Assembly: GCA_030698625.1 (NCBI GenBank)
Contig: JAUYMS010000027.1
Span: 103,781-167,780, forward strand
Reading direction: 5' to 3'
DNA: 64,000 nucleotides
Source: Candidatus Omnitrophota bacterium
GTDB taxonomy: Bacteria; Omnitrophota; Omnitrophia; Omnitrophales; Aquincolibacteriaceae
The position numbers and the translations under genes were made by a program. Below, one piece after another: positions 25,201 through 37,200 of the stretch. The number at the start of each line of letters is the position of its first letter. Position 1 is the first letter of the stretch. The notes under the pieces were generated by a model. The model ran no database searches. It saw only the letters and a program-made list of their open reading frames with translations, and was not told the origin of the DNA.

Positions 25201-28200
25201 ACCTCGTTTCATTAACTCCAGCGCATCAATCCACTCAACGGCCGTCGGCGGGCGTTTAATTCCTGACTCATCCACCCACTTTGCTTTATTCAAAAAAGAC
25301 TGCAGGTATGTGAAAACAACAACGCGGTACGTGTCGATGTTCACTTCTTCGGCATAAGCCTCCGTCACGTTCCGGTAGTCGCTGTAAAACCTCATCATCG
25401 CCTCGGCGTCAAAACCCGCCGGCCCGGTAAACGGCCTAAGCAGCGGGTCCGTGCTATCGCTCCGGCTGATGTCGGAAAACGAATCCGTCTCTGACATAAA
25501 CTCGTTTGGAAGTTGTGTGCGGAGTTTTACGTCGTTGAGGAGATTAAAGTAGGGCATATCATACTCGCGCATTCTATCGACACGCGGAACGCTCAGGGAG
25601 TGATCGAGCAGCGCCCGCCGCCACGACTGCGGCAATTTGTCGTAGCCCGGGATACTTGAGATGCGCTGATAGGTTCGAAAACCATCCATATCGTAATCGT
25701 AGTTATACTCCGTATGATTATCCAAGATGTCGAGTTCGCTTGAGTCCTGAAACTCTGCGGGACTGAAGGCATTATCTAAGACATCAAAAACTGACTCTCT
25801 GTTTGTATTAAAAATGTGCGGGTCGTTAGTGTTGGCTTGTTTTCTCTCGAGGTAGTACTCATGGACTTCTGCAACTTTCGCATCAATCAGGTTTGCCGCA
25901 AAACGGCCGGGCACATTGAAAGCATTCCAAGCAACAATCGCGGCAATGATCAGGGCGCCGACACCTGTCAGCAGCCCAAAGAATAGCCGCTTTCGCCAAT
26001 TGCGCTTCCTGATTCTCTGCTCAGCCGCCCGGTCACCATTCCGCAGACCGTACTGGTCAAGCGTCTTGTTCAGCTCACCTTCAGCATTTTCACTGTTGAC
26101 GTTAACAAAGAAGGGAAAATTATAAGCCTCGTCACTCGCGTCGCCCAAAAAGATCCTGTCAGGCGAACTGAACTTCGTCTTATCCAACACAATGGGTTCT
26201 TCGAGCTCACCGGTAAAGACACCCTCGGCCATCTTTAAGCGGTTCCCGGTGATCCCCTGAACGTCGATGTTTAGGCCGGAAAAAAGGTCCGAGACTTCCG
26301 GGGTTGCCAGGAACTTTTCAAAAAGCCCTTCAATGCCGCGCACGACAAATCGGAGCTTGATTTTCTTATTCGGCCCGAAATGATCGCGGACTTGCTTGAG
26401 CGCCTTGACATAGTTCGGGTTGAGTTTCCATTCGGCGACGAGTGTATCGTAATGCTCCTCGCGCAGATGCCCGGCAAAGACGCTGTAATAATTGCGCATG
26501 TGCTCTTCGTTGAAGTCACCGCTTATACGCGCTAGCACGTATTGCTTGCGGGCGGCCTCAAACTCCGCGAGAAACCGGTCTGCCGCGGCATCGCTTTCTT
26601 TCTCGCGTATGCCGTCGGCCACGATATGCTGCAGCTTTCTGGCCTGCTCATCGTAAGAAAGGGTCAGGGTCTCTTCGATATCGCTGTCAATCTCGACAAC
26701 CGCTTCGGTCGCACGCGCGTCCGATGGCTCGGCGCGCAACTCGGAACGCGCAGGCCGCAACTGAACGCCCGCTTCCAAACGGCTCGTCACCTGCTCCTGC
26801 CCTTTCTGAGCCGTCCGCCAATCGGTCTTAGCTTTCGCAAAGTGCTCGCCCATGGCAATAATCTCGGGGCCGTACTTTCGGATCGCAAGAGGGTCGGTAG
26901 CAAAACTTGCGATAATGCGGGTCATTTTTGCCGCAGACGGCCGCGGTTCGCTGCGCCACATGTGATGCATGCGGATCCCGAATCGGAGAATCGTCTCGCG
27001 CTTGGTTCGCTTGAGCTCGACGCCGTTACGCGTGACGGCTTTACCTTCGCCGTCGACCACCGTCTGCAGAGTCTTGTCCGCAAAAAGATTCGTCAGGTTT
27101 GTGAGCCGTTTGCCGGGCTCTTTCCAACCATCGATTAAGAGGTTGGTTGTCGTTCCGATGACGGCGCCGACCTGAATCGCACCGGTCCTTTCGTCATCAA
27201 AATTGAAGCCCTTGGCCCACATCGGGTGCTCGGTCATCGCTCCGAACAGCTGCCGTACGTGTTCCTGTATATTGGGGCGCAAAAACTGTTCTTCATCCTG
27301 CGGCACCGAAGAGAGGGCGAGAATGAGCTTCCAGTATTTCATGGGAATCTCAAGCCGCCGCCGTGCGCCGTTGGATCCGTTAATCACACCCGAGTCCTGC
27401 CGGCTATTGCGATTCAGCTTTCGTCCCCAAAATGTTGCGAGGGGTCCTTCGATTGCCTCTCGATCCTGGTACAACTGTCTTAACGCAGCGATGTCGTAAC
27501 CGTTTTCGGCCATTTCGCGCACCGCAGTGTAATGGCGCCCGATATCGAGACCGAATGCCGTTCGAACCGCAAGTGTCCGGGTATGGTTGTGAAGCACGTC
27601 GAAGGGGTCGTTGCCGCGTTTGTCGAAAGCGCGTTGGGCGTTTGCGCGCAGACGGATCGCATCGCCGGGTAGAGTATCCGCATAATTGATTTTGAGCAGT
27701 TCTCCCGGCGGCAGGCGCGGGATGTCACTTAGGGTCCGGCTTCCGGAATAAGTCAGGAGCATAGAATACCTCCCGGCAAGCACGTCCGCGAGAATGCGTC
27801 TCATTCTCGGGTCATCGCTGCCGCGGTAATAGGCATCAATGAAACCCGTTTTGCGTAATTTCGCGATCGTATCAACGGTGTTTACGAAGAGCCCTCGCTC
27901 GATCGCGCTCTGCGGTGAGGTGGAACCCTTCGGCCACAGCGAGCGCTCCGCAAGAATTTGAAAAAATATTGCCTTGGACACGTCCTCGGCATCCAGGATC
28001 GGCAGGCGATAGGTATTCCGGCTGTCGCCTGGCATACGCCGAGCGAGATTTGGGTATTCAGTTGCAAAAAGCCGCCGCAGCTTCAGTTCCTGGGCGGCAT
28101 AAACCTCGTTCCACAGGACGTAAGTGGAAGTCATGAAGTACACATTCATGAACTCCTCATTGATGATCCGTTCGAACTGTTCGGCTTCACGGATGTTGAA

Positions 28201-34200: not shown

Positions 34201-37200
34201 TTCATCCAAATCTGCTCGCGCGCGCCCGGTGTAGACGTAGTAATAATTGTGGCTGGAATTGCCGTCGCTATCCTCCGATGTCGACTCCCAAACCTCGAGG
34301 TTGCCGGCCGCATCTTCAAGATGCTCATAGAGACTGTCGCCTGACTGCAGGAATCGAATCCCGCCCCACTCGTTTGCCGCTTGACCCGCAGGAGTGGCTT
34401 TCACGGCAGCGCCGGCACCATAAAGCTGATACCCCTTGTGCAGGAAGTTGACCCCTGCCGCGACTGTAACCGCCAAAGTTCCGAACACGATAAGATTCGC
34501 GACCGTCTCGCGCACGCCCGTCCGCAGCTCGGAACGGCCTATCGGTTTGTCCAGCAATGCAACGTAAAGCGTATTCGGTTCCGGGTAAAACGTGCGCTGT
34601 TGCGTCCCCACCACGGTGATCTCATAACCCATAACCTTGGGATCGATAAATGGCGGGAACCAAGTGGTCCCGCGAACGACTTTAACACCTTGGGAGGCAA
34701 GATGATCGAAGACGGCTTTGCGCATTTTGATCCCCAGTTCCTGTCCGCGGTAAGCGGGGTGAACCAGCACATCAAGGACCATCGCTTCTTTACCGGGACC
34801 CTGAAAAGGGATAACTTCAAGAGTGGAAAGGACGGGTTGCTCAAAGCTCTCGAATCCGATCATGAAGTCGTATGTCTTACTCCATGACTCGTGAACCGGG
34901 AGCGTCATGATGTATCCGATCACGGGGTTTTCGGGATCGTTCGTGTCTCTTGCGACATAACCAAATCCGTCAGCAAAAATGTCCTCTTCCAACAGCCCGA
35001 GATTAACCTCTTTCATCAACTCAACGGCCTCCCTCTCCTCGGGAGTCGCTTCGCCGGCCGGCAAGAGCGCCCTTCGAACTGCGCCATCCTTCGGATCCGG
35101 TGTCTTATTGCGATTTTTTTTCATTTCGACATCAAAGAAAAGAGGATCCAGGGCGCCCGATCGCAACAGCTCAGAAAAGATCTGAGTATCGACCGCCTCA
35201 ACGGCAATGCCTTCCGGCACATCAAAGGCGCGCAGCTCAGACCGGGATGCGCCAAGTTCGTCCGCTTCACGCAACCATCCGCGCAGTTCCGGTGCCCAAT
35301 TCACGGAAATCTTTGCCGGCGCTACAAAGTCCGCCAACCCCTCGGCTCTAACCGCCTCCCGCGGTTCGGACCTCGCGGAGTTAAAGATGATGATGGTATC
35401 CGGATGCGCATCTTTGATCGGCTTGACAAGATCTTTTCCTTCGAGCTCTCCTTCGTCGTTCTCTCCCAAATCATTGTCCAGAAGAACCAGATCGAATGTT
35501 TCTCCTGCCCGCACGAGATCAAGGGCTTCTTCTCCCCACTTTACGATCGTGATGTCCTCGCTCCTGAGATCCCAGAATTTGCGAATGATGTCCGCGTAGT
35601 AATCGTAGTAATTAACAAGGTCTTCTCCGTTCTCCACAATCAAAACTTTTCGCGGTTGCCACTTCGGCGTATACCCACGCAACTCAGACCGGTTCACATT
35701 CTGATACTGATCTTTGTCATAGACGGTGAGAATACCTTCTGCCATACCGTACACAAACGCGGCCTTTTGATCTTTTTTGCCGGCAGCGTCTTGATCGCTC
35801 AGCGAAGGTTTGTCGGGGTAGTTTGACCAATCGGGATGACTATGCGCCTGCAAGGCGAGGCTGTCTTCCGGAAGGGGTAGATCATATTGCGGATCGGCGA
35901 TGCCGAGCCGCAGTTCTACGGCGTTCTTAAATACCCCGTACTTCTCCCCCACTTCCGCGGAGGCCTGCCTGGTGTCGGGATCTTCAACGCCGCCGCTGAC
36001 TTCACGGGCAGGGTCCAAAGCATAAGAAGCTTCCGGAATAAAGTCGATGATCCCAATGCGATCCCCCTCAGTGCGGCCGACAAATTTGCCGCGTCTTTCA
36101 AAAATGAGACTGCCCCGAAACCACTGGTCCGCTTTATTCAGGGCATCCACTCGCATGACATACTTTTGCCCGCTAAAATCCCACTCAATCACTTCCTCCG
36201 TTGTTGCTGACCACCCGTGATAGAAGTCGTAGGCGTCCTTCATGGTAGCGGATACTCGCACCCACCTATTGCCCCGCAACCATTCTCCGCTCGCATCTTG
36301 ATAGGGGGTATTGAAGGCAGTCTCGGCAAGAATCAGCTCTCTTCGCGTGAGGATCTCTTCCAAAAGGGCATTGATAAATTCAAGGTCCCCAAGCGCTCCA
36401 CCCTTTTCCTCGATCGTCTTCCGGACAAACGTATTAACATTAGCATTCACGGGCATCGGCTTGAGAGAACTTGCCTCCAGCTCCGATATCAGATTGGATA
36501 GGACAACGTATAGCGCCGAGTCCCCTGCGGGAGTCTTAAAAAACGCCTCGGCTTCGATCGCTTGAATGATCGCATTGATTGTCTCTTCCGTTGAGCCGCG
36601 CAGCTCCGAGCGCTGCGGCTCGTCGAGAGTCTCGATGAGGCTATCGCCTACCAGCACACTCCCGCTCCAGCGGTTAACGAGCGGGACGGCGGTGCCGTGC
36701 ACGGTGGTCGGCTGCTTTACGAGGTTCATAATATTTTCAGGGCTCAGACGATTTCCATCACGCAGCACTCTAAGGCCTTCCATGAAATTCCTGACATGGC
36801 CGCTCCATTCCTCGTTAGCGCTCGCGTACTCCGCCGGATTGGTCATTTGTTCCGCAGCGCCGTCGATGAAACGGGTATATTGCGCCGCTTCTTCGATGCG
36901 GCCCTCGGCGGCAAGTTTACGGATGAGGGCGTCACGCCAGGCCTTGAGTTGATTATGTCTCCGCCCCGAAAGCTTGTCGGTGACAGCCCGGTTGAAAGAC
37001 TCATAGAGATTAATCTTGCCGTCCTTGATCTTGAAATGGTCGCTCCACGAGACCTTGCCCTGCATATAGTCGAGGTAAGCACTCTTGTCGGGCATCTCAC
37101 CCATATGCGGATCGACGACGACATAGGACACGTCCTGCTCACGCAAGAGTTGGGTCAGCCTTTCCGTATGAAACCCTCCCGTGATCATGGCCGCCTTATC

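Follow-up and report, generated by a model that had tools for sequence, protein, structure and literature searches.

A giant Omnitrophota protein as a putative polyprotein, with an RSELR motif at module boundaries and signal-anchor-like segments behind three of its copies

The window analysed here is a stretch of 64,000 nucleotides from an uncultured Omnitrophota bacterium (GenBank assembly GCA_030698625.1, contig JAUYMS010000027.1, positions 103,781 to 167,780 of the forward strand), and it contains a single open reading frame (ORF) that translates into a protein of 11,456 amino acids. We propose that this giant protein is a polyprotein, which would be cut at the 16 copies of the pentapeptide RSELR that it contains, and that three of the products would start with a membrane anchor or signal of their own; in this combined form the proposal has our modest confidence, and its part that identifies RSELR as the cleavage site is, judged from sequence, probable. 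The positions of all features are collected in Table 1.

The RSELR motif and the modules between its copies

The exact pentapeptide is found 16 times in the giant ORF, against 0.03 copies expected from composition, and no further copy is encoded in any of the six reading frames of the window. Single-position variants (.SELR, RSEL., RSE[IVM]R and the like) are absent from the ORF, bar two occurrences of RSEPR. The codons vary synonymously at every position among the 16 copies (CGC, CGG or CGT for the first Arg; TCG, TCT, TCC, TCA or AGT for Ser; GAG or GAA for Glu; CTG, TTG, CTC, TTA or CTT for Leu; CGC, CGT, CGG, CGA or AGA for the last Arg), so that selection acts on the peptide and not on the DNA; a DNA-level repeat or uptake signal is ruled out by the same variation. 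The ORF itself is not an artefact of a single assembly, since its first 1,421 codons, behind the same upstream genes, are also present on a 12-kb contig from public run SRR13727534.

Cutting at RSELR gives 17 modules of 128 to 2,303 residues. Order-promoting residues make up 0.16-0.23 of the positions within 10 residues of the motif, compared with a background of 0.33; the residue before the motif is mostly Ala, Ser or Gly, and the residue after it is mostly Ser, Thr, Ala or Gly. The first copy lies within a tail of the AlphaFold2 (AF2) model of module 1 with predicted local distance difference test (pLDDT) values below 50. RSELR is thus located in linker-like sequence at the edges of protein-sized modules, i.e., it is a recurrent short motif at the boundaries of autonomous units, which is the arrangement expected of a processed polyprotein. 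PEXEL/RxLR, furin, S1P and Tat motifs were considered as the identity of RSELR and ruled out, because the spacing of their conserved residues does not match. No description of RSELR was found in the literature on the motif, on bacterial polyproteins or on giant genes, with coverage that was incomplete and gives no guarantee of priority.

The two RSEPR sites, the sole near-variants of the motif, are both inside conserved domains, at residue 1087 (region 35371-35373) and at residue 3893 (26953-26967), and the counterpart of one of them in module 8 is RGEPR. Proline at the fourth position may make RSEPR uncleavable, which would be consistent with selection against accidental sites.

Several of the pieces contain recognizable domains. 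Module 3 (149 residues) is a receiver domain, module 4 (236 residues) is a GNAT acetyltransferase, and module 6 (338 residues) is a branch-1 histidine phosphatase (His_Phos_1). The head of module 7 has a weak match to GlnD-like nucleotidyltransferases, module 11 contains CofD and NUDIX domains, and module 15 (5140-12048, minus strand) combines tetratricopeptide repeats (TPRs) with an Upf1/MkoA-like SF1 helicase that is matched by AAA_11/12. Modules 8 and 9 are tandem paralogs with 65% identity. By domain content and by size, therefore, the modules resemble ordinary proteins. A search of PDB sequences with three thirds of the giant returned only weak NUDIX and SF1-helicase matches, and scans of genomes and metagenomes found no loci related to modules 3-7.

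The SF1 helicase of module 15 matches the Mokosh defence helicase MkoA (E=2e-32) and is homologous to a motif-delimited helicase module of another giant, P0020, with 29% identity over about 1,000 residues; judged from this alignment, it appears to be a second case of a module common to several giants. PADLOC was used to evaluate the locus as a defence system, and the likeness of the helicase to MkoA was the sole match, leaving a defence role unsupported.

The giant protein has two cysteines among its 11,456 residues, and both of them (residues 20 and 24) are in the N-terminal signal peptide. Such near absence of Cys may point to unfolded export or to an oxidising destination.

Hydrophobic segments and their orientation

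Membrane-helix grade was assigned by two measures over 19 residues, a Kyte-Doolittle mean with a threshold of 1.6 and a Hessa-scale sum of at most 3.0. The latter cut-off was calibrated on the proteins encoded in the window, where it finds the helices of ResB, CorA, the ABC-2 permease and YidC, and produces no hits in 13 soluble proteins. Six segments of the giant pass it, starting at residues 1376, 1581, 1826, 2377, 3178 and 4216; the one at 1826 belongs to the histidine-phosphatase fold, where it is probably buried. Of these segments, three start 5-7 residues past an RSELR, compared with 0.16 expected under random placement (segments starting within 15 residues of the motif, 5000 permutations, p=2e-4).

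These three segments, which open modules 5, 8 and 9, have hydrophobic cores above the Kyte-Doolittle threshold and, on the Hessa scale, within the range of the known helices of the window, and each is preceded by a basic flank and followed by fewer positive charges, as in the n-region of a signal sequence. When the two Arg of the motif are removed from the count, the N-terminal side is still positive in modules 8 and 9 and is roughly neutral in module 5 (TGVRE). Possible signal peptidase I sites, all non-canonical, are IFA/S in module 8, LTG/R in module 9 and AAG/V in module 5, and the core length of 18-22 residues favours an uncleaved anchor over a cleavable signal. In modules 8 and 9 the helix is followed by a spacer of 55-60 residues and then by a domain of about 700 residues; divergence is far greater in helix and spacer than in the domain, and both paralogs have kept the helix. 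We consider it likely, on these sequence properties, that the three segments span a membrane.

A preceding sequence-only reading of the window had pointed to signal-anchor-like segments directly behind several RSELR sites. The sequences it quoted, from residues 1371, 2371 and 3171 on, are exact and pass the hydrophobicity tests; the positions given were correct for the first two sites, and the single slip concerns the third module, which starts at 29121 and not at 29112. It had also noted that other RSELR copies are followed by polar sequence, which holds for the copies directly before 32694, 24879 and 20307.

By the positive-inside rule, every strong helix of the giant, including the N-terminal signal peptide, would read as N-in/C-out on its near flanks (see the Lys/Arg ratios in Table 1). 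The N-in helices at 2377, 3178 and 4216 are consecutive, and exactly one RSELR lies between each pair of neighbours. Orientations must alternate in one uncut chain, and these successive N-in helices therefore cannot coexist in it.

The relatives described below allow an independent look at topology, for which the window protein was left out and the residues of the motif were masked. Of the helices that come first behind a motif, 32 read as N-in and 8 as N-out (p=2e-4), and the later helices are split 24:40 (Fisher p=2e-5); an odd number of helices is present in 28 of the 52 helix-bearing modules. It appears, therefore, that membrane topology is set anew at every motif. Certain post-motif segments of the relatives resemble classical signal peptides, e.g., RSEIR-ARPVFSSLSTRLSVMGLAAILMWGMLQNLSAQ.

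Relatives, separators and the N-terminal module

We performed HMMER searches with modules 3-6 as the query. The histidine-phosphatase module is embedded at varied positions in other giants, of 2,000-8,000 residues, and is also found as a stand-alone protein of 314-398 residues. When the giants were aligned on the catalytic RHGESxSN motif of this module, every one of them was found to have a short recurrent separator 44-53 residues upstream of the RHG motif. The separator differs by lineage: RSELR, RSEVR, RAEAR, RSEMR and RSESR are used in one group, SSSPV in another, and DxAML and VRMS elsewhere; more distant relatives have xSLGx or DRTEMRP. Giant P0011 has 20 copies of SSPV, against 0.07 expected. 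The stand-alone phosphatases have a signal peptide and then, at the place of the separator, a stretch similar to (S)LAPxSxF.

Divergent separators (SSSPV, D-x-A-M-L, G-[AS]-R-[ML]-A, x-SLG-x and DRTEMRP) were seen in P0011, P0013, P0008, P0030, L042-L047 and L011. The DxAML giants have another conserved N-terminal domain (FQFDFIxDxGD...WVNLSPYEKDRI), which has no Pfam match, and a C-terminal GGIDFN...PVIINI domain. Just upstream of RSELR no. 6 in the window protein, the copy that closes the phosphatase module (residues 1963-1974, 32710-32745, minus strand), there is a stretch that resembles the DxAML separator, and this separator holds a nearly equal position after the phosphatase module in giants of the DxAML type (DSAML in P0013). 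To judge from this resemblance, the stretch may be a fossil separator left by transfer of a module between lineages.

A search of GTDB representative genomes with a three-sequence alignment of module 1 gave 47 loci that start with a module 1 homolog; all named ones belong to metagenome-assembled genomes of Candidatus Omnitrophota or Omnitrophica, and several genomes have two to four such loci. Most of the 47 loci show enrichment of the pattern R[SAT]ExR, and so do 13 database giants (for example, 12 copies against 0.18 expected and 15 against 0.23), and the giants with RSExR-type separators share the module 1 homolog at the N terminus. Cysteine is lacking here too, with none among 4,732 residues in P0001, 7,403 in P0005 and 7,989 in P0022. 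The C-termini of 23 relatives consist of a helix followed by x-[A/S]-A-COOH (RAA, VAA, GAA, KAA or SAA), with TMA in the window protein; this ...AA terminus may be a recognition signal for secretion, for a tail-specific protease or, as a degron, for a Clp-type protease. The stand-alone phosphatase homologs P0006 and P0021 end in TAA. Upstream of 28 loci, there is no conserved neighbouring gene for a protease or a transporter.

One of these loci, L002 (CAYJSI010000025.1), is a syntenic ortholog of ours: the neighbouring genes for an ABC transporter, CorA, RlmN and YchF are 59-72% identical to those at 38632-48000 of the window. Between the two giants, only module 1 can be aligned, with 36% identity, and all cargo modules are unrelated. 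Cargo at a fixed locus thus appears, from this comparison, to be turned over extremely fast.

In the C-terminal modules of P0007, P0023, P0028 and P0022, the last copy of the motif differs from the other copies, with their linker setting, in that it is situated between hydrophobic, strand-like stretches (e.g., FFVALS-RAEAR-IVVYNE, LFVALS-RSETR-IIVYNE and VLFLH-RSEVR-FIIPN). It may be inside a folded domain there, as a pseudo-substrate or docking copy.

Module 1 is the only large domain common to all RSExR giants, and giants with other separators have a different N-terminal domain. In its AF2 model, a helix at residues 3-31 is followed by a disordered linker and by a core in which a parallel β-sheet with flanking helices is predicted to superpose on solved members of the Tiki superfamily. 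His99, Glu127, Arg460 and the GGFH at 485-488 are invariant in 12 sequences, and position 97 (Asp or Glu) is mostly acidic. A His-Glu pair with a second His, i.e., the 2His/2Glu motif of the superfamily, is recognizable, with residue correspondence assigned by spacing: the distance of 28 from His to Glu is the same as in BcR135 (H85/E113) and in RRSP (H3902/E3930). Both RRSP and TIKI act as site-specific endopeptidases (PMC6254334). No profile match was obtained with module 1 itself; two of its homologs match PF04187 (ChaN family, Tiki superfamily) at E=0.002-0.009, which is below the gathering score, and comparison of the module 1 profile with PDB sequences returned only spurious coiled-coil matches. 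Like members of the Tiki/TraB/PrgY/ChaN/erythromycin-esterase group, module 1 has a predicted α/β core and the order His...Glu (28 apart)...GxxH, and like many of them it is positioned behind a signal peptide or anchor; unlike them, it has a helical insert of about 290 residues, reaches the threshold of no Pfam model, and forms the head of a giant chain. We tentatively regard it as the candidate processing protease, an assignment that is the weakest link of our explanation.

The window is a chromosome segment beside the replication origin, with dnaA, dnaN, gyrB, gyrA and serS on the minus strand and yidC and mnmG on the plus strand, and the cumulative GC skew turns (minimum) near 58 kb; gene order and the skew minimum place the origin at about 58.6-59.5 kb (within 57205-59543). 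The giant gene is about 20 kb from the origin and is transcribed co-directionally with replication. A hexapeptide-transferase ORF (3537-4412, minus strand), read from its first ATG, overlaps the end of the giant ORF by 152 nucleotides, and its true start is therefore probably further downstream. An ORF of 223 residues (40049-40720, plus strand) has no family match and overlaps rlmN on the opposite strand; for these reasons it is probably not a gene, even though it is called in the Logan contig.

Table 1. Features of the giant ORF and their positions in the window (aa, residue numbers in the giant protein; KD, Kyte-Doolittle mean; Lys/Arg, counts in N- and C-terminal flanks)
Feature	Position	Strand	Basis or remark
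Giant ORF, putative polyprotein, 17 modules and 16 RSELR	4261..38631	-	ORF translation
N-terminal signal peptide or anchor, aa 1-41, hydrophobic core then ...TLYA/QP	38509..38631	-	sequence; Lys/Arg 6:1
Module 1 core, aa ~68-520, predicted Tiki/TraB/erythromycin-esterase-superfamily fold	37072..38430	-	predicted fold, invariant residues
RSELR no. 1, aa 674-678, end of module 1	36598..36612	-	sequence; low-pLDDT tail
RSELR no. 2, aa 981-985	35677..35691	-	sequence
RSELR no. 3, aa 1130-1134, closes 149-aa receiver (REC) module	35230..35244	-	sequence, domain match
RSELR no. 4, aa 1366-1370, closes GNAT module; hydrophobic helix directly after	34522..34536	-	sequence, domain match
Module 5 anchor or signal, aa 1376-1397, 5 aa past RSELR	34441..34506	-	KD 1.93, Hessa 1.96, Lys/Arg 4:1
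Module 5 second helix, aa 1581-1599; basic tail, then RSELR no. 5	33835..33891	-	Lys/Arg 3:1
RSELR no. 5, aa 1637-1641, before histidine-phosphatase module; RHV at +46, family-typical distance	33709..33723	-	
RSELR no. 6, aa 1975-1979	32695..32709	-	sequence
RSELR no. 7, aa 2366-2370, hydrophobic helix directly after	31522..31536	-	sequence
Module 8 anchor, aa 2377-2397	31441..31503	-	KD 1.77, Hessa 2.43, Lys/Arg 4:2
Module 8 Pro/Ala/Glu-rich spacer, aa 2398-2455, before ~700-aa conserved domain	31267..31440	-	
RSELR no. 8, aa 3166-3170, hydrophobic helix directly after	29122..29136	-	sequence
Module 9 anchor, aa 3178-3196	29044..29100	-	KD 1.86, Hessa 0.39, Lys/Arg 4:2; paralog of module 8
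Module 9 Pro/Glu/Lys-rich spacer, aa 3197-3250	28882..29043	-	
RSELR no. 9, aa 3962-3966, then polar sequence	26734..26748	-	sequence
Module 10 internal helix, aa 4216-4235	25927..25986	-	Lys/Arg 8:1
RSELR no. 10, aa 4580-4584, before CofD+NUDIX module	24880..24894	-	sequence, domain match
RSELR no. 11, aa 6104-6108	20308..20322	-	sequence
RSELR no. 12, aa 6666-6670	18622..18636	-	sequence
RSELR no. 13, aa 7628-7632	15736..15750	-	sequence
RSELR no. 14, aa 8857-8861, before TPR + SF1-helicase module	12049..12063	-	sequence, domain match
RSELR no. 15, aa 11160-11164	5140..5154	-	sequence
RSELR no. 16, aa 11288-11292, before last module, 164 aa	4756..4770	-	sequence
C-terminal tail ending ...KLISTMA	4264..4344	-	counterpart in relatives is a helix ending x-[A/S]-A

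Processing scheme, alternatives and known systems

In the scheme that we favour, a highly specific endopeptidase would recognize RSELR as a linear motif and cut there, and the resulting 17 pieces would be functional proteins. Modules 5 (residues 1371-1641), 8 (2371-3170) and 9 (3171-3966) would each start with a basic stretch and, 5-7 residues past the cut, a helix of 18-22 residues whose role would be that of an N-in/C-out signal-anchor or, possibly, of a signal peptide that is removed. Because of the basic tail 15-40 residues past its second helix (at 1581), module 5 may be read as a membrane hairpin or as a type I membrane protein whose basic tail is cytoplasmic. In modules 8 and 9, the anchor would hold the Pro-rich spacer and the domain of about 700 residues on the periplasmic side, and module 10 would be bitopic in the membrane. 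The products that remain soluble would be the receiver, GNAT, phosphatase, nucleotidyltransferase-like, CofD+NUDIX and helicase modules. Cutting would most likely occur on the cytoplasmic side, before or during membrane insertion, with each module inserted by itself, and the conserved Tiki-fold module at the N terminus would be the best candidate for the protease.

What the analysis shows directly is the statistics of the motif, the boundaries of the modules, the hydrophobicity and charge bias of the helices, the distribution of the family and the predicted fold of module 1; cleavage, its compartment, the enzyme and the final topology are all deduced from sequence. Several observations weigh against the scheme. 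No peptidase family of Pfam or NCBIfam scores above threshold anywhere in the giant protein. Many Tiki proteins act outside the cytoplasm, and the superfamily also includes esterases and non-enzymes; the signal peptide of module 1 would direct it out of the cytoplasm and so fits poorly with the topology argument, which needs cutting on the cytoplasmic side. The location of modules is likewise not fully coherent, since the stand-alone phosphatases have a signal peptide and module 6 does not. Modules 5 and 8 (the latter searched with residues 2340-3200) have no homologs among 5.8 billion proteins against which their anchors could be compared; the AF2 model of module 9, built from a two-sequence alignment, has a pLDDT of 33 and is unusable. 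Helix and orientation calls are crude, being made from a window sum and a Lys/Arg count, and the call is too noisy for closely spaced helices, so that a test for alternation of successive helices was uninformative. The idea, already in the sequence-only reading, that cleavage at RSELR yields a mix of membrane-tethered and soluble modules thus receives partial support, from module boundaries, helix orientation and the relatives; placement of helices directly behind the motif is clear in the giant itself and only mild in the relatives, where 8 cases were observed against 4.0 expected (p=0.05, marginal).

The protein could, instead, be one uncut polytopic giant, in which RSELR would be a linker or a motif for docking that serves, e.g., a partner protein, a modifying enzyme or the pacing of translation, and the hydrophobic segments would be ordinary internal transmembrane helices. 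This would agree with the usual description of Omnitrophota giants as single membrane-associated proteins with many transmembrane helices, with the candidate status of the protease, and with the presence of several domains and no intervening motif in long modules such as 11 and 15. We regard it as unlikely, because all strong helices read as N-in on their near flanks, which makes alternation impossible, and because modules 8 and 9, for all their 65% identity, would end up across the membrane from each other in an uncut chain, with the receiver and GNAT modules outside the cell, away from the phosphodonors and acetyl-CoA of the cytoplasm that they need. The N-in bias of the first post-motif helix in the relatives also persists though about half of the modules there have an odd helix count, and unrelated lineage separators at the same boundary suit a co-evolving pair of enzyme and substrate better than a structural linker. 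It is very improbable, in our estimate, that the three hydrophobic stretches do not span a membrane at all, being instead amphipathic or buried helices with much Ala and Gly, or else linkers of low complexity, and that they came to be near the motif by chance. They are, indeed, rich in Ala and Gly and moderately hydrophobic (Hessa sums of 0.4-2.4), and the segment at 1826, which passes the same threshold within the phosphatase fold, demonstrates that the method can flag buried segments; against this stand the absence of false positives among the soluble controls, the isolation of the segments, which have a basic stretch on one side and a spacer of low complexity or rich in Pro on the other, outside globular domains, their non-random placement directly past the motif, and the retention of the helix in paralogs 8 and 9 despite its sequence having diverged far more than that of the domain.

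A further alternative shares cleavage with the favoured scheme and differs in its place: the Cys-free precursor would be exported and processed outside the cytoplasm, or in a prey or host cell, as a MARTX-like effector polyprotein whose hydrophobic segments would enter the target membrane. We give this little credence. Strong internal hydrophobic helices would be expected to stall Sec export of a chain of 11,456 residues; secretion-system genes are not conserved beside the loci, neither RTX repeats nor a cysteine protease domain was found, and the module types look like housekeeping and signalling enzymes, not known toxins. What speaks for export is the signal peptide on a module with an often extracytoplasmic fold, the near absence of Cys from the window giant and its relatives, the conserved N- and C-terminal modules, with their ...AA end, around hypervariable cargo, the sharing of module 1 alone with the L002 giant amid well-conserved neighbours, the signal peptides of stand-alone phosphatases, and the view that Omnitrophota are predatory or parasitic. 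Among these readings, processing of a polyprotein encoded in a bacterial chromosome and equipped with built-in sorting signals appears to us the best supported.

Viral polyproteins are the closest known parallel, and the C/prM junction of flaviviruses is the nearest in mechanism. At that junction, an NS2B-NS3 site (two basic residues, then a small one) is found just upstream of an internal signal sequence. In both cases, one ORF would give many mature proteins by means of an exact short motif in linkers; a small residue comes next after a basic, P1-like one, the chain itself includes a protease-like domain, and, as at C/prM, a cut site directly before a signal or anchor would generate both soluble and membrane products. 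Unlike viral polyproteins, this one is encoded by a chromosomal bacterial gene about 20 kb from dnaA, is 11,456 residues long, and has a candidate protease of Tiki rather than chymotrypsin-like fold, and its cleavage is inferred by us. TonB/TolA-type proteins combine an N-in signal anchor with an extended spacer rich in Pro, Glu and Lys and a C-terminal domain, and modules 8 and 9 have the same layout; this is an analogy only, as they share no sequence or profile similarity with TonB/TolA, and their domain of 700 residues has no known relatives.

The MARTX toxins, effector polyproteins with self-processing, are similar in their conserved ends, swappable effector-sized modules, cleavage at short linker sites and cargo that differs strongly between related strains, and one of their effectors, RRSP, is a Tiki-fold site-specific endopeptidase (PMC6254334). 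The Tiki domain is cargo there and a candidate processing enzyme here, and the modules here are not known toxins. RTX repeats and the cysteine protease domain activated by inositol phosphate (Peptidase C80) were not detected with Pfam and NCBIfam, nor type I secretion genes among the neighbours of the loci, and on these grounds the giant is not a MARTX toxin.

The giant does qualify as one of the multi-enzyme giants of its own phylum, having, in 11,456 residues, REC, GNAT, His_Phos_1, CofD, NUDIX and AAA_11/12 domains. The 'multi-enzyme metabolic clusters' (bioRxiv 10.64898/2026.06.07.730766) and giant genes (West-Roberts et al. 2023, bioRxiv 10.1101/2023.11.21.568195) of Omnitrophota likewise exceed 10,000 residues, tile unrelated enzyme Pfam families (GNAT, receiver, NUDIX) along one chain, and have transmembrane helices and fast sequence turnover. 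Cleavage of these giants into several products has been speculated upon, with no cleavage points given, and C39 or S8 peptidase domains have been proposed as the processing enzymes (bioRxiv 10.64898/2026.06.07.730766, 10.1101/2023.11.21.568195); neither domain is present in the window giant. The separators, the Tiki-like head module, the ...AA tail and the near absence of Cys were not found described in the giant-gene literature, coverage of which was incomplete.

Giant genes of Omnitrophota, some of which encode more than 100,000 residues, are a recognised puzzle, and whether their products are cut has been asked, with cleavage points stated in one paper to be unknown (bioRxiv 10.64898/2026.06.07.730766, 10.1101/2023.11.21.568195). 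A lineage-variable but exact separator at module edges offers a testable map, by which giants can be divided into units for structure prediction, annotation and expression. If the favoured scheme is true, cytoplasmic, membrane and periplasmic proteins would all come from one gene, at a fixed 1:1 ratio; cleavage would have to precede membrane insertion, and the Tiki-fold domain would possibly represent a new class of site-specific processing protease, whose five-residue site could find use as a tool. To judge from the wholesale change of cargo between syntenic orthologs, evolution at these loci appears to be as rapid as in conflict or effector systems. A broader extrapolation from sequence, which we hold to be speculative and on balance doubtful, is that chromosomal polyproteins of Omnitrophota are widespread single-chain operons, in which a Tiki protease at the head, co-evolving with the pentapeptide of its lineage (RSExR, with different separators elsewhere), would cut a Cys-free precursor into dozens of enzymes, each with its own address (none, or a signal or anchor after the cut), and cargo would be exchanged wholesale. 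If this were so, these bacteria would possess a strategy of expression and sorting so far known only from viruses, and the separators would provide the missing cleavage map of their giant proteins.

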